Below, one piece after another: positions 31,753 to 38,633 of a stretch of DNA of 64,000 nucleotides. Position 1 is the stretch's first letter. Each line of letters begins with the position of its first letter. Under the pieces are notes generated by a model. The model saw only the letters and a list, made by a program, of their open reading frames with translations. It did not search any database and had not been told where the DNA came from. Made by a program: the position numbers and the translations under genes. Source of the stretch: Escherichia coli (GTDB taxonomy: Bacteria; Pseudomonadota; Gammaproteobacteria; Enterobacterales; Enterobacteriaceae); assembly GCF_003334385.1 (NCBI RefSeq), contig NZ_QOWN01000009.1. One strand, written 5' to 3'.

Positions 31753-34305
31753 TCAGAACAATTCCTGTGCCTCGCCATTATCGATAATGGTCGTTCCCAC
31801 CTCGTGCACTGCCTGTTGTGTCGGCTGCGTACCTTCGATGAAATACTCTTCGCGGCTGTTGCCACCATTAGCTAACTGCCCGGTGCTGCGATCGATATTC
31901 ACCGTCACAATACCCGGTGGCGGCGTCAGCGGCTGCTCCGGCACACCTTCAAGAACGGCTTTCATATAAGCGTCCCATGCAGGCTGGGCACTCTTGGCAC
32001 CGCCTTCGTAACCTGAGATCTGATCTTTAATCGCTCCGGAAGCCGTTGTATGACCGAGATTACGACGGTGATCATCAAAGCCAATCCAGACCGAGGTCAC
32101 AACGCCCGGACCGTAACCCGAGAACCACGCATCTTTCGAACTGTTAGTGGTCCCGGTTTTCCCGCCGATATCGCGACGCTGCAAATCACGACCTGCACGC
32201 CAGCCAGTACCCTGCCAGCCTGGCTCACCAAAGATATTGGTGTTCAAAGCACTCTTAATCAGGAATGCCAGCGGAGTGTTGATGACGTGCGGTGCGTACT
32301 CCTGCGCGCCAGTCTTCGCCACTAACGCCTGATTTGCCTGCTCCAGCTGCGGCATTGGTACAGAAACATTCTGCTGCTCGCGGGAGATAGCGACATCTTC
32401 AACATCGTTATTTTCCAGCACGTTCGATTTCTGCGTATCACCGTAAATCACCGGAATATCGCATTCCGGGCAGGCTACTTTCGGTTTCGCTTCGAAAATC
32501 ACGCCGCCCTGATCGTTTTCAATTTTGCTGATAAACCACGGGTCCACCAGGAAGCCGCCGTTCGCCATGACCGCGTAGCCGCGCGCCACCTGCATTGGGG
32601 TGAAGGACGCTGAACCCAGCGCCAGCGATTCGGTGTGGACAATGTTTTGTGCCGGGAAGCCGAAGCGTTGCAGATATTCTGCAGCGTAGTCGACGCCCAT
32701 CGCCCGCATTGCGCGTACCATCACCACGTTTTTCGACTGACCCAGCCCCTGACGTAAGCGAATTGGACCAGCATACTGCGGTGGTGAGTTCTTCGGCTGC
32801 CAGTCAGAACCGGCACTTGCATCCCAGCGAGAAATTGGCACATCGTTCAACATACTTGCCAGCGTCAGACCTTTATCCATCGCCGCGGTGTAGAGGAACG
32901 GTTTGATGTTGGAACCCACCTGACGCAGTGCCTGGGTGGCGCGGTTAAACTTGCTCTGATTGAAATCAAAGCCACCGACCAGCGCCATAACGGCACCGTT
33001 TTGCGGATTGATCGACACCAGCGCCGAGTTCACTTCCGGCACTTGTGCCAGCCACCATGCATCGCCAACCTGACGAACCCAGATTTGCTGACCCGTTTGC
33101 AGAACATCGGTCACTTTACGCGGCGTCGGTCCTTGCTGAGTATCCGAACGGTAAGGACGCGCCCAGCGAACGCCTTCCATACTCAATGCGACGGTCGACC
33201 CGTCCGCCAGCATCGCCGTCGCTTGCTGAGGATTGGCGCTGGTGACTGCGGCAGGCAGCAGCGGACCATAGGTTGGCAGCGCCTTCAGCGTATCGGTAAT
33301 CTTGTTGTTATCCCACGCCGACTCGCCCACTTTCCACAGCACATTTGCCGGGCCGCGATAGCCGTGGCGCATGTCGTAGTCCAGCACGTTATTACGTACC
33401 GCCTGCTGCGCGGCCTGCTGCACTTTGCGGGTGATGGTGGTGTAAATGCGATAACCGTCTTCATAGGCACTTTCGCCATAACGGTTATACATCTCCTGGC
33501 GCACCATTTCGCTCAGGTACGGCGCAGAGAAAGCAATCTCCGGCGCGTGATAGTTAGCGTTAATCGCCTCAGTGCGTGTCTGATCGAACTGTTGTTGGGT
33601 GATATACCCTTCATCCAGCATCCGCGACAGCACGACGTTACGCCGCGCGACGGCACGATCCATCGAGTAGAGCGGGTTGAAGGTGGAAGGCGCTTTCGGC
33701 AGCCCGGCTATCACCGCCATTTCGTTCAGCGTCAGTTGGTCGACCGTTTTTCCGAAATAGACTTGTGCCGCAGCACCGACACCATAGGCGCGGTAACCAA
33801 GGTAAATCTTGTTCAGATAAAGCTCGAGGATCTCGTCTTTCGTCAGCAGCTGTTCAATGCGAATCGCGAGGAAGACTTCCTTAATCTTACGCATCAGCGT
33901 GCGTTCTGGACTGAGGAAGAAGTTTCTCGCCAGCTGCTGGGTAATGGTACTTGCCCCTTGTGACGCGTGACCGGAGAACAGCGCCACGCTTGCTGCACGG
34001 AAGATCCCCACCGGGTCAACGCCGTGATGCTCGTAGAAGCGGCTGTCTTCTGTCGCGATAAAGGCTTTCACCATCTCCGGTGGGATTTGATCCAACGTAA
34101 CCGGAATACGACGTTTCTCACCGTATTGAGCAATCAGCTCGCCATCGGCGCTGTAAATCTGCATCGGAATTTGCAGGCGAACATCTTTTAATGTCGCCAC
34201 ATCCGGCAGTTGTGGCTCGATGTAGCGGTATAGGCCATAAATCGAGCCTGCTCCCAGCAGAATGCAACAGACTGCAAGGATCAAAAAATACTTTACGAAC
34301 TTCAC
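31753..34305 (-). CDS. mrcA: Penicillin-binding protein 1A (bifunctional transglycosylase/transpeptidase)
   Basis: 850 aa from a GTG start (MKFVKYFLILAV...); the ORF track extends 8 codons upstream; transpeptidase SxxK segment (GSNIKPF). Confidence 0.95.
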   Translation of the reverse strand: MKFVKYFLILAVCCILLGAGSIYGLYRYIEPQLPDVATLKDVRLQIPMQIYSADGELIAQYGEKRRIPVTLDQIPPEMVKAFIATEDSRFYEHHGVDPVGIFRAASVALFSGHASQGASTITQQLARNFFLSPERTLMRKIKEVFLAIRIEQLLTKDEILELYLNKIYLGYRAYGVGAAAQVYFGKTVDQLTLNEMAVIAGLPKAPSTFNPLYSMDRAVARRNVVLSRMLDEGYITQQQFDQTRTEAINANYHAPEIAFSAPYLSEMVRQEMYNRYGESAYEDGYRIYTTITRKVQQAAQQAVRNNVLDYDMRHGYRGPANVLWKVGESAWDNNKITDTLKALPTYGPLLPAAVTSANPQQATAMLADGSTVALSMEGVRWARPYRSDTQQGPTPRKVTDVLQTGQQIWVRQVGDAWWLAQVPEVNSALVSINPQNGAVMALVGGFDFNQSKFNRATQALRQVGSNIKPFLYTAAMDKGLTLASMLNDVPISRWDASAGSDWQPKNSPPQYAGPIRLRQGLGQSKNVVMVRAMRAMGVDYAAEYLQRFGFPAQNIVHTESLALGSASFTPMQVARGYAVMANGGFLVDPWFISKIENDQGGVIFEAKPKVACPECDIPVIYGDTQKSNVLENNDVEDVAISREQQNVSVPMPQLEQANQALVAKTGAQEYAPHVINTPLAFLIKSALNTNIFGEPGWQGTGWRAGRDLQRRDIGGKTGTTNSSKDAWFSGYGPGVVTSVWIGFDDHRRNLGHTTASGAIKDQISGYEGGAKSAQPAWDAYMKAVLEGVPEQPLTPPPGIVTVNIDRSTGQLANGGNSREEYFIEGTQPTQQAVHEVGTTIIDNGEAQELF

Positions 34306-34424
34306 TGGAAATTTCCCATTTAGTTTCATTTGGGCAGTTTATAAACAAACGCGCGGTAGTATAAAGGCAAGCCAGACGCATTGATATACCCGTCAGAGTG
34401 ACGGGTGATAAGGAGATCATCACA

Positions 34425-35204
34425 ATGGCATTTAAGATCTGGCAAATTGGTTTGCATTTACAACAGCAAGAAGCGGTAGCGGTTGCGATCGTGCGGGGCG
34501 CAAAAGAATGCTTTTTGCAACGCTGGTGGCGGTTGCCGCTGGAGAACGACATTATCAAAGATGGGCGGATTGTTGATGCGCAGCAGCTGGCTAAAACGTT
34601 GTTACCGTGGAGTCGCGAACTGCCGCAGCGTCATCACATTATGTTGGCGTTTCCCGCCAGTCGCACATTACAGCGGTCATTTCCGCGCCCGTCGATGTCC
34701 CTTGGTGAGCGGGAGCAAACGGCCTGGCTGTCAGGGACGATGGCCCGCGAGCTGGATATGGATCCGGACTCCCTGCGCTTCGATTACAGCGAAGACTCAC
34801 TCAGTCCCGCCTATAACGTGACTGCCGCGCAAAGCAAAGAGCTGGCAACGCTGCTTACTCTGGCAGAAAGGTTGCGTGTTCATGTGAGCGCGATCACCCC
34901 GGATGCCAGTGCATTACAGCGATTCCTGCCTTTTTTACCTTCTCATCAGCAATGTCTGGCCTGGCGTGATAACGAACAGTGGCTGTGGGCGACGCGCTAT
35001 AGCTGGGGGCGCAAACTGGCGGTGGGGATGACTAGCGCGAAGGAGCTGGCGGCAGCGTTATCCGTTGATCCCGAAAGCGTCGCGATATGTGGCGAAGGCG
35101 GATTTGATCCCTGGGAGGCCGTTTCTGTTCGTCAGCCGCCGCTACCGCCGCCAGGTGGAGACTTTGCCATCGCGCTGGGGCTGGCGCTTGGGAAGGCGTA
35201 CTGA
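34425..35204 (+). CDS. hofM: Type IV pilus/DNA-uptake assembly protein HofM (PilM-like)
   Basis: 259 aa from MAFKIWQIGLHL with RBS aaggag; divergent from mrcA; first gene of hofMNOPQ. Confidence 0.88.
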   Translation: MAFKIWQIGLHLQQQEAVAVAIVRGAKECFLQRWWRLPLENDIIKDGRIVDAQQLAKTLLPWSRELPQRHHIMLAFPASRTLQRSFPRPSMSLGEREQTAWLSGTMARELDMDPDSLRFDYSEDSLSPAYNVTAAQSKELATLLTLAERLRVHVSAITPDASALQRFLPFLPSHQQCLAWRDNEQWLWATRYSWGRKLAVGMTSAKELAAALSVDPESVAICGEGGFDPWEAVSVRQPPLPPPGGDFAIALGLALGKAY

Positions 35205-35743
35205 TGAACCCGCCAATTAATTTTTTGCCCTGGCGACAGCAACGCCGGACCGCTTTTCTGCGTTTCTGGTTGCTGATGTTCGTTGCGCCTCTGCTGCTGG
35301 CCGTCGGGATAACGCTAATACTGCGTCTGACAGGCAGCGCCGAAGCGCGCATAGACGCAGTTTTGCTTCAGGCGGAACAACAACTCGCCCGAAGCTTACA
35401 GATAACGAAGCCACGTTTGCTGGAGCAACAGCAGTTACGCGAACAGCGTTCGCAACGGCAGCGCCAGCGACAATTTACCCGCGACTGGCAATCTGCGCTG
35501 GAAGCACTGGCGGCGCTTTTACCCGAGCACGCCTGGCTGACAACGATAAGCTGGCAGCAGGGAACGCTGGAGATCAAGGGGCTGACAACAAGCATTACCG
35601 CGTTAAACGCACTAGAAACGTCACTCCGCCAGGATGCATCTTTTCATCTCAATCAGCGGGGAGCCACGCAGCAGGATGCGCAGGGACGCTGGCAATTTGA
35701 GTATCAGTTAACAAGGAAGGTTAGCGATGAACATGTTCTTTGA
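35204..35743 (+). CDS. hofN: DNA-utilisation protein HofN (PilN-like)
   Basis: 179 aa; 1-nt stop/start overlap with hofM. Confidence 0.85.
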   Translation: MNPPINFLPWRQQRRTAFLRFWLLMFVAPLLLAVGITLILRLTGSAEARIDAVLLQAEQQLARSLQITKPRLLEQQQLREQRSQRQRQRQFTRDWQSALEALAALLPEHAWLTTISWQQGTLEIKGLTTSITALNALETSLRQDASFHLNQRGATQQDAQGRWQFEYQLTRKVSDEHVL

Positions 35744-36167
35744 CTGGTGGTTCGCCACATCACCCCGCCTCCGCCAGCTTTGCTGGGCATTCTGGTTGCT
35801 GATGTTAGTTACGCTCATTTTTCTGTCATCGACACACCATGAAGAGCGCGACGCATTAATTCGACTACGGGCAAGTCATCACCAGCAGTGGGCCGCACTG
35901 TATCGCCTGGTAGACACCACTCCCTTCAGCGAGGAAAAAACGCTGCCCTTTTCGCCACTGGATTTTCAGTTATCCGGCGCGCAACTGGTTTCCTGGCATC
36001 CATCCGCGCAGGGAGGCGAGTTGGCGTTGAAAACGCTGTGGGAAGCAGTGCCGTCGGCATTTACACGGCTGGCAGAGCGCAACGTCAGCGTGAGCCGTTT
36101 TTCGTTAAGCGTGGAAGGTGATGATCTTTTGTTCACGCTACAACTGGAGACGCCGCATGAGGGTTAA
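35727..36167 (+). CDS. hofO: DNA-utilisation protein HofO (PilO-like)
   Basis: 146 aa; overlaps hofN 3' end. Confidence 0.85.
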   Translation: MNMFFDWWFATSPRLRQLCWAFWLLMLVTLIFLSSTHHEERDALIRLRASHHQQWAALYRLVDTTPFSEEKTLPFSPLDFQLSGAQLVSWHPSAQGGELALKTLWEAVPSAFTRLAERNVSVSRFSLSVEGDDLLFTLQLETPHEG

Positions 36168-36561
36168 ACGCTGGTTGTTGGCAGGTATTGCATTGTGCCT
36201 TTTAACCGGTATGCGTGACCCTTTTAAACCGCCGGAAGATCTATGCCGGATTAGCGAACTTAGCCAGTGGCGCTATCAGGGGATGGTAGGGCGAGGCGAG
36301 CGCATCATCGGTGTAATAAAAGACGGGCAAAAGAAATGGCGACGGGTGCAGCAAAACGATGTGCTGGAAAACGGCTGGACAATTTTACAGCTGACGCCAG
36401 ACGTACTAACGCTGGGTACCGGGACAAACTGCGAACCGCCACAATGGTTGTGGCAACGGCAAGGAGATACAAATGAAGCAATGGATAGCCGCACTACTGT
36501 TGATGCTGATACCCGGCGTACAGGCGGCAAAGCCGCAAAAAGTGACGCTGATGGTGGATGA
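36157..36561 (+). CDS. hofP: DNA-utilisation protein HofP (PilP-like)
   Basis: ORF track 147 aa trimmed to MRVKRWLLAGIALCLL (134 aa). Confidence 0.8.
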   Translation: MRVKRWLLAGIALCLLTGMRDPFKPPEDLCRISELSQWRYQGMVGRGERIIGVIKDGQKKWRRVQQNDVLENGWTILQLTPDVLTLGTGTNCEPPQWLWQRQGDTNEAMDSRTTVDADTRRTGGKAAKSDADGG

Positions 36562-37711
36562 CGTTCCGGTAGCTCAGGTGTTGCAGGCGCTGGCTGAACA
36601 GGAGAAGTTGAACCTGGTCGTGTCGCCAGACGTCAGCGGTACGGTGTCGTTACATCTAACAGATGTTCCCTGGAAGCAGGCACTACAAACTGTAGTGAAA
36701 AGCGCCGGACTGATAACGCGGCAGGAAGGCAACATTCTCTCAGTGCATTCCATTGCCTGGCAGAATAACAATATCGCCCGCCAGGAGGCGGAGCAGGCGC
36801 GGGCGCAGGCAAATCTGCCGCTGGAAAATCGCAGTATAACCCTGCAATACGCCGACGCGGGAGAACTGGCGAAAGCGGGGGAGAAGCTACTGAGTGCCAA
36901 AGGGAGTATGACCGTCGATAAACGCACCAATCGCCTTTTGCTACGAGATAACAAAACGGCGTTAAGCGCGCTTGAACAGTGGGTAGCGCAAATGGATCTG
37001 CCGGTCGGGCAGGTTGAGCTGTCGGCGCATATTGTCACCATTAATGAAAAAAGTTTGCGTGAGTTAGGCGTGAAATGGACGCTGGCCGATGCGCAACACG
37101 CTGGTGGCGTTGGGCAAGTCACCACGCTTGGTAGCGACCTCTCCGTAGCGACGGCGACAACGCATGTCGGTTTTAACATTGGGCGCATCAACGGACGCTT
37201 GCTGGATCTTGAGCTTTCCGCGCTCGAACAAAAACAGCAGCTGGATATTATCGCCAGTCCGCGTCTGCTGGCCTCACATCTTCAGCCTGCCAGCATTAAA
37301 CAGGGGAGCGAAATTCCATATCAGGTTTCCAGCGGGGAAAGTGGCGCGACGTCGGTGGAATTTAAAGAGGCCGTCCTGGGGATGGAGGTCACGCCCACGG
37401 TGTTACAAAAAGGTCGCATCCGGCTGAAATTACACATCAGCCAGAACGTTCCGGGGCAGGTGCTACAGCAGGCCGATGGCGAAGTGCTGGCGATTGATAA
37501 GCAGGAGATCGAAACGCAGGTCGAGGTCAAAAGCGGAGAAACGTTGGCGCTGGGCGGCATTTTTACCCGTAAAAATAAATCGGGTCAGGATAGCGTACCG
37601 TTGCTTGGCGACATTCCCTGGTTCGGGCAATTATTTCGTCATGACGGAAAAGAAGATGAACGACGCGAGTTAGTGGTGTTTATCACGCCACGACTGGTTT
37701 CCAGTGAGTAA
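36473..37711 (+). CDS. hofQ: Outer-membrane secretin HofQ (PilQ/ComE-like)
   Basis: 412 aa with signal peptide and C-terminal secretin domain; 89-nt overlap with hofP. Confidence 0.92.
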   Translation: MKQWIAALLLMLIPGVQAAKPQKVTLMVDDVPVAQVLQALAEQEKLNLVVSPDVSGTVSLHLTDVPWKQALQTVVKSAGLITRQEGNILSVHSIAWQNNNIARQEAEQARAQANLPLENRSITLQYADAGELAKAGEKLLSAKGSMTVDKRTNRLLLRDNKTALSALEQWVAQMDLPVGQVELSAHIVTINEKSLRELGVKWTLADAQHAGGVGQVTTLGSDLSVATATTHVGFNIGRINGRLLDLELSALEQKQQLDIIASPRLLASHLQPASIKQGSEIPYQVSSGESGATSVEFKEAVLGMEVTPTVLQKGRIRLKLHISQNVPGQVLQQADGEVLAIDKQEIETQVEVKSGETLALGGIFTRKNKSGQDSVPLLGDIPWFGQLFRHDGKEDERRELVVFITPRLVSSE

Positions 37712-38111
37712 ACAGCCGTAAAAGCGGTAATGTTTTTACGCTGAACGTGTTTCATCTATTTGACGCGCGCAGGTATTTAGCATACAAGGAGTACCGATTT
37801 GAGAGTTGGTGCTCTTCGCTGCCTGCGTTCCATGATGATGATTTATCATTCAGGCGGCATTTTGCTGTCTTTTTTACGCTAATCTTACCCGGTGATTTAT
37901 CGCCAGAGCGGTGGTAGCAAGGCAGCGCGCTTGCAGCGACCAGATATGCAGAGGGATGGGTGATTTATTCAGTTGCCAAACCCGCTGGAGTATTGAGATA
38001 ATTTTCAGTCTGACTCTCGCAATATCTTATGAGGTTTCAGTTCATGTCCTGCGGCGCTCTCTGAGCGAAGCGGGTTTATCATTAACGAATAGTCTTAGTA
38101 GTACCGAAAAA

Positions 38112-38633
38112 ATGGCAGAGAAACGCAATATCTTTCTGGTTGGGCCTATGGGTGCCGGAAAAAGCACTATTGGGCGCCAGTTAGCTCAACAACTCAATAT
38201 GGAATTTTACGATTCCGATCAAGAGATTGAGAAACGAACCGGAGCTGATGTGGGCTGGGTTTTCGATTTAGAAGGCGAAGAAGGCTTCCGCGATCGCGAA
38301 GAAAAGGTCATCAATGAGTTGACCGAGAAACAGGGTATTGTGCTGGCTACTGGCGGCGGCTCTGTGAAATCCCGTGAAACGCGTAACCGTCTTTCCGCTC
38401 GTGGCGTTGTCGTTTATCTTGAAACGACCATCGAAAAGCAACTTGCACGCACGCAGCGTGATAAAAAACGCCCGTTGCTGCACGTTGAAACACCGCCGCG
38501 TGAAGTTCTGGAAGCGTTGGCCAATGAACGCAATCCGCTGTATGAAGAGATTGCCGACGTGACCATTCGTACTGATGATCAAAGCGCTAAAGTGGTTGCA
38601 AACCAGATTATTCACATGCTGGAAAGCAACTAA
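38112..38633 (+). CDS. aroK: Shikimate kinase I
   Basis: 173 aa from [22 protein letters not shown] (P-loop); the ORF track is extended 67 codons upstream. Confidence 0.95.

Follow-up and report, generated by a model that had tools for sequence, protein, structure and literature searches.

An intact, conserved hofMNOPQ operon in Escherichia coli whose 89-nt hofP/hofQ overlap appears to be a by-product of the HofQ signal peptide

Positions 34425-37711 of the 64,000-nucleotide stretch of Escherichia coli DNA analysed here (the window) are, with near certainty, the intact chromosomal hofMNOPQ operon (formerly yrfDCBA-hofQ), a core-genome locus. This is a conserved, annotated operon rather than a chance set of open reading frames; every one of the 5,426 complete E. 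coli genomes searched contains the region, at 95-100% identity, and no observation speaks against the identification. The genes are arranged as follows:

31753-34305, minus strand: mrcA coding sequence, divergent from hofM, with a 119-bp spacer between them
34425-35204, plus strand: hofM, 259 aa, predicted PilM-fold cytoplasmic actin-like protein, shorter than PilM, with the phosphate-1 Asp replaced by His
35204-35743, plus strand: hofN, 179 aa, predicted PilN-like bitopic protein; 1-nt TGATG overlap with hofM
35727-36167, plus strand: hofO, 146 aa, predicted membrane protein in the PilO position; 17-nt overlap with hofN
36157-36561, plus strand: hofP, 134 aa, with predicted signal peptide, RDPF motif, PilP/GspC-HR beta-domain (residues ~30-103) and disordered tail (residues 106-134)
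36473-37711, plus strand: hofQ, 412 aa, predicted secretin of the outer membrane, made up of signal peptide, N0/STN, N1 and a complete secretin domain, without AMIN

The open reading frame listing and the junctions, read directly, contained no frameshift and no premature or internal stop, in keeping with the original prediction of five open, full-length genes diverging from mrcA. The overlaps of 1, 17, 11 and 89 nt that it had listed agree exactly with the RefSeq annotation of the five genes from hofM to hofQ, and identical coordinates were obtained from two annotated genomes, one of a strain 100% identical in this region and the other of K-12 BW25113 (99.9% identical). The K-12 genes (b3395-b3391, formerly yrfD, yrfC, yrfB, yrfA and hofQ) occupy the same locus, with the same neighbours nudE, mrcA, aroK, aroB and damX; starts, stops and overlaps are equal, and HofM, HofN, HofP and HofQ share RefSeq protein accessions, whereas the HofO accession differs (WP_001055760.1 in the window, WP_001055759.1 in K-12; 99% identical). 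Full (100%) identity to the window was seen in several human isolates, but not in K-12. Searches of the whole 64 kb against Rfam at the gathering threshold, and of all five Hof proteins against PADLOC defence models, returned no match.

Anti-Shine-Dalgarno (anti-SD) pairing was strongest at the annotated start among the in-frame candidates for each of the five genes. Two of the ribosome binding sites, and the longest overlap, are located as follows:

34410-34415, plus strand: hofM Shine-Dalgarno AAGGAG, 9 nt 5' of the ATG; anti-SD duplex -9.3 kcal/mol, the best in frame
36461-36466, plus strand: hofQ Shine-Dalgarno AAGGAG, 6 nt 5' of the ATG, within hofP codons Gln-Gly-Asp
36473-36561, plus strand: hofP/hofQ overlap, where one frame encodes the signal peptide of HofQ with its first N0 residues and the other encodes the HofP tail

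The sequence ATAAGGAGATC at the hofM site is nearly invariant among 65 loci, and the hofQ site (anti-SD duplex -8.5 kcal/mol) is conserved across loci and unpaired in the predicted fold. The hofO reading frame opens only at 35712, so its overlap with hofN is forced; this 17-nt overlap is identical in 53 loci, and 61 loci have a hofM/hofN spacing of -1 or -4 nt. All four junction architectures recur in about 80 other Enterobacteriaceae species, which indicates that the overlaps are not start-codon artefacts.

From these patterns we infer both start usage and coupling at the junctions. Termination-reinitiation works at stop-start spacings of about -8 to +10 nt (PMC10666635), a range that includes hofM/hofN at -1 (TGATG); hofO/hofP at -11 and hofN/hofO at -17 fall just outside it, and hofP/hofQ at -89 lies outside. 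The proposal that the overlaps reflect translational coupling is thus a reasonable one for the 1-nt hofM/hofN junction, the only good fit, uncertain for the 11- and 17-nt overlaps, and unlikely for hofP/hofQ, where the overlap is too long for termination-reinitiation. RNA folding at the four junctions was no more stable than in shuffles, leaving coupling by RNA unfolding unsupported. One mRNA would be translated into five proteins, each gene having its own Shine-Dalgarno site; the TGATG junction is of a type that would permit termination-reinitiation, the 11- and 17-nt overlaps would be borderline, and hofQ would most likely be initiated independently, from its own strong, unpaired site.

The region upstream of hofM and the end of the operon contain several published or predicted elements:

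34149-34274, no strand assigned: published yrfD (hofM) EMSA fragment, to which both primers of PMC1635313 map uniquely, entirely within the mrcA coding sequence
34157-34178, no strand assigned: best candidate from a half-site scan for the distal CRP-S site ("E.c. -246"), core TGCATCGGAATTTGCA, matching 7/10 CRP-S core positions
34306-34388, no strand assigned: mrcA-hofM intergenic block, near-invariant in Enterobacteriaceae, a shared divergent promoter/5'-UTR region
34389-34405 (extending to 34387-34407), plus strand: predicted stem-loop CCCGTCAgagTGACGGG, just 5' of the hofM Shine-Dalgarno
37715-37728, plus strand: weak terminator-like hairpin from a consensus scan, 4 nt past the hofQ stop; a second lies at 37852-37870

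Two weak CRP-S sites have been reported on the yrfD (hofM) promoter fragment (PMC1635313). With the CRP-S core taken as TGCGA-N6-TCGCA and up to two mismatches allowed, the 800 bp upstream of hofM held no site, the nearest being at 33573, and the whole window held 32, fewer than the 50 expected from shuffles. The best candidates in a relaxed half-site scan were 34160-34175 and 34241-34256, each with 7/10 positions, and the placement of the sites therefore rests on the published primers. The candidate 22-mer at 34157-34178 ends 247 nt 5' of the hofM ATG, which compares with -246 in the legend of Figure 4 of PMC1635313, and we infer that it is the published distal site. Membership of the operon in the CRP-S/Sxy regulon rests on the literature, in which Sxy induced the hofM operon 16-fold (PMC1635313); the same study backs the earlier statements on poor expression and on induction by Sxy and CRP, and the link to DNA uptake and to DNA as a nutrient is backed by PMC3330819.

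Mean pairwise identity across genera was 91% in the intergenic block, versus 60% for the third codon positions of mrcA and 64% for the opening 120 nt of hofM. A special role for this spacer was rejected, since conservation in this alignment is no lower 5' of aroK and damX. For the stem-loop, the minimum free energy fold had z = -2.5, and 72.7% of cells were paired, compared to 20-54% in slid controls; double-change cells numbered 33, against 21 +/- 5 in shuffles, a count reached by 3 of 500, suggesting modest support for conserved pairing. A consensus scan for promoters and terminators over 34100-38200 found sites at numbers not above shuffles and no plus-strand promoter upstream of hofM; a hand-read candidate (-35 TTTATA at 34338-34343, 16 nt, -10 TATAAA at 34360-34365) is speculative. 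The five terminator-like sites compare with 4.8 expected in shuffles and so give no evidence of function.

HofM, HofN, HofO and HofP had no NCBIfam HMM match, and were assigned with Pfam, profile searches against the PDB and structure prediction. Fold and profile searches placed HofM in the actin/FtsA-like fold, closest to PilM. Its family scores were weak (Pfam PilM_2, E = 0.047; T2SSL, E = 0.0024), and a profile of 66 HofM orthologues matched Myxococcus xanthus PilM at E = 0.0039. The profile alignment set "GLH(I/L)QQ" of HofM, in which His11 is invariant in the 66 orthologues, opposite "GLDIGS" of PilM; the canonical phosphate-1 Asp-x-Gly is missing, and HofM may therefore differ from PilM in how it works. 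HofN matched Pfam PilN over residues 99-166 (3.1e-9) and has an (I/V)N(F/L)LPWR motif at residues 5-11, conserved in nearly all loci, followed by the hydrophobic stretch FLRFWLLMFVAPLLLAVGITLIL, features that mark it as a predicted PilN with a PilM-binding N-terminal motif and one transmembrane segment. HofO matched a single Pfam family, PF25319 "HofO EspM-like" (2.2e-25), and no PilO model; its gene position and N-terminal hydrophobic segment suggest that it is the PilO counterpart. Fold and profile searches indicated that HofP contains a PilP/GspC-type beta-sandwich HR domain, of the kind that docks on the secretin N0 domain. No lipobox was seen by eye in the E. coli N-terminus, MRVKRWLLAGIALCLLTGMRDPF, in which the sole Cys follows "IAL"; this Cys is absent from most orthologues (for example LSLLMLTGMRDPF), and HofP, in contrast to classical PilP, is apparently no lipoprotein.

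HofQ, for which a comparison of secretin integrity with PilQ and ComE homologues had been proposed, has a complete secretin domain with no lesion. It matched NCBIfam NF007851 over residues 1-412 of 412 with 855 bits (cut-off 598) and the PilQ model TIGR02515 with 449 bits (cut-off 284), and its Pfam domains are STN (46-89), Secretin_N (120-180) and Secretin (250-409, model positions 1-168 of 169). The N-terminus, MKQWIAALLLMLIPGVQA-AK, reads by eye as a signal peptide. HofQ residues 23-409 correspond to chain residues 158-569 of Vibrio cholerae PilQ (PDB 6w6m; 2e-74) and to residues 322-737 of Neisseria meningitidis PilQ. No AMIN domains were found in HofQ, and 412 aa leaves no room for them, which places the protein in the HofQ/ComE subfamily and is not a lesion.

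It is barely credible that the overlaps, above all the 89-nt one, are annotation artefacts from start codons picked too far upstream. Same-strand overlaps of this length are unusual, those above 8 nt being rare in E. coli gene pairs (PMC10666635), and an alternative hofO ATG 6 nt downstream has nearly equal Shine-Dalgarno pairing, but that ATG would still leave an 11-nt overlap with hofN. The annotated hofN, hofO and hofQ starts are already the first start codons after the frame opens; a later hofN start would cost the INFLPWR motif, and a later hofQ start would cost the n-region or the whole of the signal peptide (MKQWIAALLLMLIPGVQA-AKP). The same Shine-Dalgarno motifs and overlap lengths are also seen in 53-68 of some 75 divergent loci, and we reject the artefact reading on this sequence evidence. 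Less far-fetched, though unlikely, is that the 89-nt overlap is a selected regulatory device, with translation of the tail through the hofQ ribosome binding site setting the HofP:HofQ ratio, or with a tail that is itself functional. Its length is strikingly conserved (exactly 89 nt in most genera and in the majority of 73 loci, nearly all of which lie within 80-98 nt), the tail is included in the Pfam HofP model, and subunits of heteromeric complexes are enriched for short overlaps (PMC10666635). However, random synonymous recoding of HofQ codons 1-45 gave a median overlap of 89 nt, with about 60% of the recoded sequences staying open for the observed length or longer, and the conserved "GG-stop" ending of HofP is a direct outcome of the HofQ Val-Asp-Asp codons. 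The HofP tail is poorly conserved in sequence and predicted to be disordered (pLDDT <50), HofP ends at an ATGA junction in Leclercia-type loci and after 38-62 nt in others, and local fold stability around the unpaired hofQ Shine-Dalgarno was not above shuffles. The long overlap appears instead to be a passive by-product, existing because the hydrophobic codons of the hofQ signal peptide cannot give stops in the hofP frame. The earliest opportunity for hofP to stop would be the TGA at 36559-36561, which straddles the conserved HofQ codons Asp29-Asp30 (GAT GAC), and HofP would be left with a disordered, probably dispensable tail. With the overlap explained by HofQ signal-peptide amino acids, it should be taken neither as a sign of coupling nor as a sign that the HofP tail has a function.

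It is also highly improbable that the operon is a decaying relic, its frames open here by chance, selection gone and intactness uninformative about capacity. Such a reading could draw on the poor laboratory expression (PMC1635313) and on the very fast divergence of HofM, HofN, HofO and HofP, which are 30-50% identical between genera, versus 67-88% for HofQ; the HofO proteins of E. coli and E. albertii share only 75% identity. Sporadic lesions occur in E. coli, where PNUSAE151638 carries a hofM frameshift, strain C8 an internal hofQ stop and CNR20180903 a deletion of hofQ; in other species, the type strain of E. albertii has nonsense codons in both hofO and hofP, and the copy in C. koseri NCTC10786 is decayed. 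Against it, dN/dS lies far below 1 (0.09-0.25 for hofMNOP, 0.02-0.03 for hofQ), indicating that all five genes are under purifying selection, and the operon is intact, with five open frames, in 68 of the 72 species loci that span it, despite saturated synonymous divergence. Shine-Dalgarno sites, start positions and the short functional motifs INFLPWR and RDPF are conserved, and hofQ phenotypes have been published (PMC3330819, PMC2649431). The low dN/dS supports the claim that capacity is retained. Although the four small genes change several-fold faster than hofQ, purifying selection still acts on them, which argues that the cryptic pilus or DNA-uptake capacity continues to be used somewhere in nature. 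Horizontal exchange was rejected as the cause of high dS in hofMNO; low expression and low codon bias are a simpler explanation, preferred because dS in hofQ is similarly high while its dN is very low.

The operon encodes the envelope-spanning alignment and secretin part of the cryptic type IVa pilus or DNA-uptake machine. In this machine HofM is the cytoplasmic PilM-fold protein, HofN and HofO are predicted bitopic inner-membrane proteins, with HofN contributing the PilM-binding motif, HofP is a periplasmic domain that would dock on the secretin N0 domain, and HofQ is the outer-membrane channel. According to published work, transcription is near silent in laboratory culture and is switched on by CRP-cAMP and Sxy through weak CRP-S sites, which map here within the coding sequence of the divergent mrcA. 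The present analysis supplies identity, intactness, starts, the conservation of the junctions, purifying selection and folds to this picture, and the literature supplies regulation and DNA-uptake phenotypes. A further, rather doubtful possibility is that the enterobacterial Hof system is a streamlined PilMNOPQ variant, not a plain copy, with a truncated HofM that has lost nucleotide binding, a non-lipidated HofP and a covarying stem-loop next to the hofM ribosome binding site acting as a post-transcriptional control that contributes to the silence of the operon; loss of nucleotide binding is conceivable because an invariant His replaces the phosphate-1 Asp.

As a discovery the locus carries little weight: the operon is an ordinary one that all E. 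coli genomes have annotated, and published work already covers its regulation and role in DNA uptake. What has been clarified is that the 89-nt overlap is real, yet explained by the HofQ signal-peptide sequence, and the way in which the nucleotide-binding loop of HofM departs from that of PilM can be tested in work on the E. coli type IV pilus.

PilMNOPQ form the type IVa pilus alignment subcomplex and secretin in Pseudomonas, Myxococcus, Thermus and Neisseria. In comparison, HofM is about 75-135 residues shorter than solved PilM chains, in addition to its different loop, HofO belongs to its own Pfam family only, unlike PilO, HofP is without the conserved lipobox cysteine of PilP, and HofQ starts at N0, without the approximately 157-330 N-terminal residues (AMIN domains) of PilQ; HofM and HofP are 9-21% identical in sequence to solved homologues. 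The Haemophilus influenzae comABCDE operon is orthologous, yrfD being the comA orthologue (PMC1635313), and shares with hof both dependence on Sxy and CRP-cAMP and the short, AMIN-less type of secretin; the periplasmic domains of Aggregatibacter HofQ (2y3m) match HofQ residues 27-182. In contrast to the Pasteurellaceae com operon, the CRP-S sites of E. coli are weak, lie more than 150 bp upstream and are inside mrcA, and natural transformation of E. coli by the hof system has never been shown without artificial sxy expression and recombineering help (PMC3330819). In every comparison with GspL, GspM, GspC and GspD of type II secretion, PilM, PilP or PilQ scored equally well or better: HofQ reached 194 bits with the GspD model, under its 351-bit cut-off, but passed that of the PilQ model, and the order of the hof genes is that of pilMNOPQ.

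The hofMNOPQ genes form a known, annotated core-genome operon. A six-frame ORF list and direct reading of the junctions placed five open frames on the + strand, divergent from mrcA, with successive overlaps of 1, 17, 11 and 89 nt:

hofM: 34425-35204, + strand, 259 aa
hofN: 35204-35743, + strand, 179 aa
hofO: 35727-36167, + strand, 146 aa
hofP: 36157-36561, + strand, 134 aa
hofQ: 36473-37711, + strand, 412 aa
mrcA: 31753-34305, - strand, divergent from hofM across a 119-bp spacer

These are the open frames, overlap lengths and orientation that the original prediction had described, and its overall reading was essentially right, apart from a caveat about translational coupling. All hof starts and stops coincide with the RefSeq features of a 100%-identical record and of BW25113. 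Megablast of 34330-37711 found matches in all 5,426 of 5,426 complete E. coli genomes at 95-100% identity, including 100% to several human isolates and 99.9% to K-12 BW25113; nudE, aroK, aroB and damX, along with mrcA, surround the operon.

Wrong start-codon choice could in principle create such overlaps, but the annotated starts were supported by ribosome-binding-site pairing. Predicted pairing with the 16S anti-Shine-Dalgarno sequence was -9.3 (hofM), -6.4 (hofN), -8.3 (hofO), -6.4 (hofP) and -8.5 kcal/mol (hofQ), in each case the strongest or joint-strongest among in-frame candidates, and the starts of hofN, hofO and hofQ are the earliest available once the frame opens. With later starts, HofN would lose its (I/V)N(F/L)LPWR motif, HofO its hydrophobic segment and HofQ its signal peptide (MKQWIAALLLMLIPGVQA-AKP). 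Stops and homologous starts were also located in 80 orthologous loci of further Enterobacteriaceae species, among them members of Escherichia, Salmonella, Citrobacter, Enterobacter, Klebsiella, Kluyvera and Raoultella. At hofM/hofN, 31 loci have a 1-nt overlap and 30 a 4-nt overlap; at hofN/hofO, 53 overlap by 17 nt (the Enterobacter group has a 3-nt gap instead); at hofO/hofP, 68 overlap by 11 nt; and at hofP/hofQ most show exactly 89 nt, with nearly all in the range 80-98 nt. Because pairing, N-terminal features and recurring junction architecture agree, annotation artefact was rejected, and the comparison indicates that the overlaps are real and ancient.

The overlaps had also been taken to suggest translational coupling, which holds only in part. 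Two-reporter experiments in E. coli show termination-reinitiation to be a local event, possible when stop and start overlap or are separated by about -8 to +10 nt and nearly abolished at 20-38 nt (PMC10666635; review PMC12548453). The TGATG junction of hofM/hofN lies within this distance, making coupling there a reasonable expectation. The hofO/hofP (-11 nt) and hofN/hofO (-17 nt) junctions fall just beyond the typical coupling class and each has its own Shine-Dalgarno sequence, so that coupling would be uncertain at both. At hofP/hofQ it appears unlikely, given that -89 nt does not fit the termination-reinitiation distance and hofQ has a strong Shine-Dalgarno sequence of its own (AAGGAG, 6-nt spacer), unpaired in the predicted fold. 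Coupling through RNA unfolding was unsupported, as none of the four junction folds was more stable than shuffled controls.

The long hofP/hofQ overlap is explained passively by the sequence of hofQ. The hofP stop, TGA at 36559-36561, spans HofQ codons Asp29-Asp30 (GAT GAC), part of the conserved Val-Asp-Asp motif where the N0 domain begins, and the 29 C-terminal residues of HofP are the HofQ signal-peptide codons read in an alternate frame. A stop in the hofP frame arises only where T is the last base of a HofQ codon and the next codon, for Asn, Lys, Ser, Arg, Asp or Glu, begins with AA, AG or GA; a hydrophobic signal peptide rarely provides such a pair. In each of 73 loci, HofQ codons 1-45 were synonymously recoded 2,000 times. 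For most of these loci the simulated overlaps again had a median of 89 nt, and the share of recodings that remained open to at least the observed extent had a median of 60%. In the AlphaFold model of HofP (74 orthologues), residues ~30-103 form a beta-domain with pLDDT 85-92, and the overlap-encoded tail from residue ~105 has pLDDT below 50; its sequence is poorly conserved across orthologues. The conserved Gly-Gly-stop ending is dictated by the HofQ Val-Asp-Asp codons, and HofP ends at an ATGA junction in two Leclercia-type loci and after 38-62 nt in several others. Recoding, model and ortholog comparison gave no independent sign of selection on the tail. It is the reproduced length, the low-confidence, poorly conserved tail and the earlier HofP ends elsewhere that support the passive explanation.

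The five genes evolve at unequal rates. Across 80 species, protein identity was 67-98% for HofQ and fell to 30-50% for HofM, N, O and P; to E. albertii it was 97% (HofQ), 86% (HofM), 78% (HofN) and 75% (HofO). Nei-Gojobori dN/dS of these genes against five other Escherichia lineages was 0.02-0.03 for hofQ, 0.09-0.10 for hofM, 0.12-0.17 for hofN, 0.15-0.22 for hofO and 0.09-0.25 for the hofP core (controls mrcA, aroK and aroB, 0.02-0.08). These ratios (0.09-0.25 versus 0.02-0.03) indicate that hofM, N, O and P (34425-36472) change several-fold faster than hofQ (36473-37711) inside one operon, yet that all five are under clear purifying selection. Against E. albertii, dS was ~0.9 for hofM-O, 0.47 for mrcA and 0.08 for aroK; the roughly twofold excess over mrcA and the far larger one over aroK are consistent with very low expression.

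All five frames were open in 68 of the 72 species loci covering the full operon. Sporadic inactivation was seen in otherwise conserved surroundings: nonsense codons in hofO and hofP of the E. albertii type strain (NBRC 107761; 3462 and 3784 in its fetched locus, L005), a decayed copy in C. koseri NCTC10786 (fetched locus L040) affecting hofM and the hofQ 5' end, a hofM frameshift in Phytobacter massiliensis, and fused hofM-hofN frames in one C. amalonaticus assembly. Three E. coli strain loci (L083, L084 and L085), chosen as atypical matches and so giving no frequency estimate, carry a hofM frameshift (PNUSAE151638), an internal hofQ stop with a 45-nt hofN deletion (C8), and a hofQ deletion joined to truncated barA (CNR20180903, 4.28 Mb).

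Several features were observed in the flanking sequence:

34306-34388 (with mrcA codons 1-15, 34261-34305): mrcA-hofM spacer, almost invariant from Escherichia to Klebsiella
34306-34329, - strand: mrcA frame open 24 nt 5' of the annotated GTG (34305), to an ATG at 34329 (MKLNGKFP-VKFVKYF...)
34389-34405 (extended 34387-34407), + strand: stem-loop CCCGTCAgagTGACGGG, a few nt 5' of the hofM Shine-Dalgarno sequence
37712-38111: hofQ-aroK spacer, 400 bp, poorly conserved overall (54% column identity)

Mean pairwise identity of the mrcA-hofM spacer across genera was 91%, reaching 96% in a 40-bp window from 34333; mrcA third-codon positions gave 60% and the opening 120 nt of hofM 64%. In the same alignment the 5' regions of aroK and damX are just as conserved, so this is probably ordinary housekeeping promoter and 5'-UTR constraint serving mrcA. 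The mrcA GTG is invariant across genera, whereas conservation of the ATG 5' of it breaks down in Klebsiella and Superficieibacter, which supports the annotated start. The stem-loop differs in sequence among genera with pairing largely retained (72.7% of cells paired versus 20-54% in slid controls), and its double changes were reached in 3 of 500 shuffles, suggesting modest covariation support; lacking a T-run, it was ruled out as an intrinsic terminator. In the hofQ-aroK spacer the final ~40 nt (38073-38111), directly 5' of aroK, are 97-99% identical. A promoter-like site (37973-38002, 10/12) and terminator-like hairpins (37715-37728, 37852-37870) also occur in this spacer, at frequencies not above shuffles.

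Poor laboratory expression of the operon, part of the original prediction, agrees with Cameron and Redfield (PMC1635313), who reported poor or undetectable yrfD-hofQ transcription, 16-fold induction of yrfD (hofM) by Sxy with a requirement for CRP and cAMP, and weak CRP binding to a yrfD promoter fragment carrying two predicted CRP-S sites. Their EMSA primers map to 34149-34274. This fragment, 151-276 nt 5' of the hofM ATG, is wholly within the coding sequence of mrcA, a position that implies a long hofM leader or remote activation. A candidate for their "-246" CRP-S site is the 22-mer at 34157-34178; a pattern search of the fragment gave weak cores (7/10) and nothing better. Deletion of hofQ abolishes sxy-dependent DNA uptake (Sinha and Redfield, PMC3330819), and the predicted link to DNA as a nutrient is upheld as far as the summary of the Finkel laboratory phenotype in that paper goes. 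Uropathogenic E. coli with a hofQ deletion also persist less in the kidney (PMC2649431). PpdD pilus assembly is supported by a Ptac plasmid that combines the other pilus genes with hofM-hofQ, the latter cloned as a single PCR fragment in which the hofM ribosome-binding site was modified (bioRxiv 10.1101/856302).

Compared with the type IVa pilus proteins, HofQ scores above cut-off over its full length against the NCBIfam models for both HofQ and PilQ, and it contains STN/N0 and Secretin_N domains as well as a complete secretin domain. From its residue 23 on, it aligns to V. cholerae PilQ from residue 158 onward, and it therefore lacks AMIN domains, a trait of HofQ/ComE-type secretins. HofN has a PilN domain and an N-terminal motif predicted to bind PilM; HofO matches its own Pfam family only. 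HofM residues 9-14 (34449-34464) read GLHLQQ, with a His invariant in the HofM family at the position of the phosphate-1 Asp of PilM and other actin-fold ATPases (GLDIGS), and HofM is ~75-135 residues shorter than solved PilM chains, so that nucleotide binding may have been lost. Together, HofMNOPQ constitute a PilMNOPQ-type alignment subcomplex and secretin, with family-specific departures.
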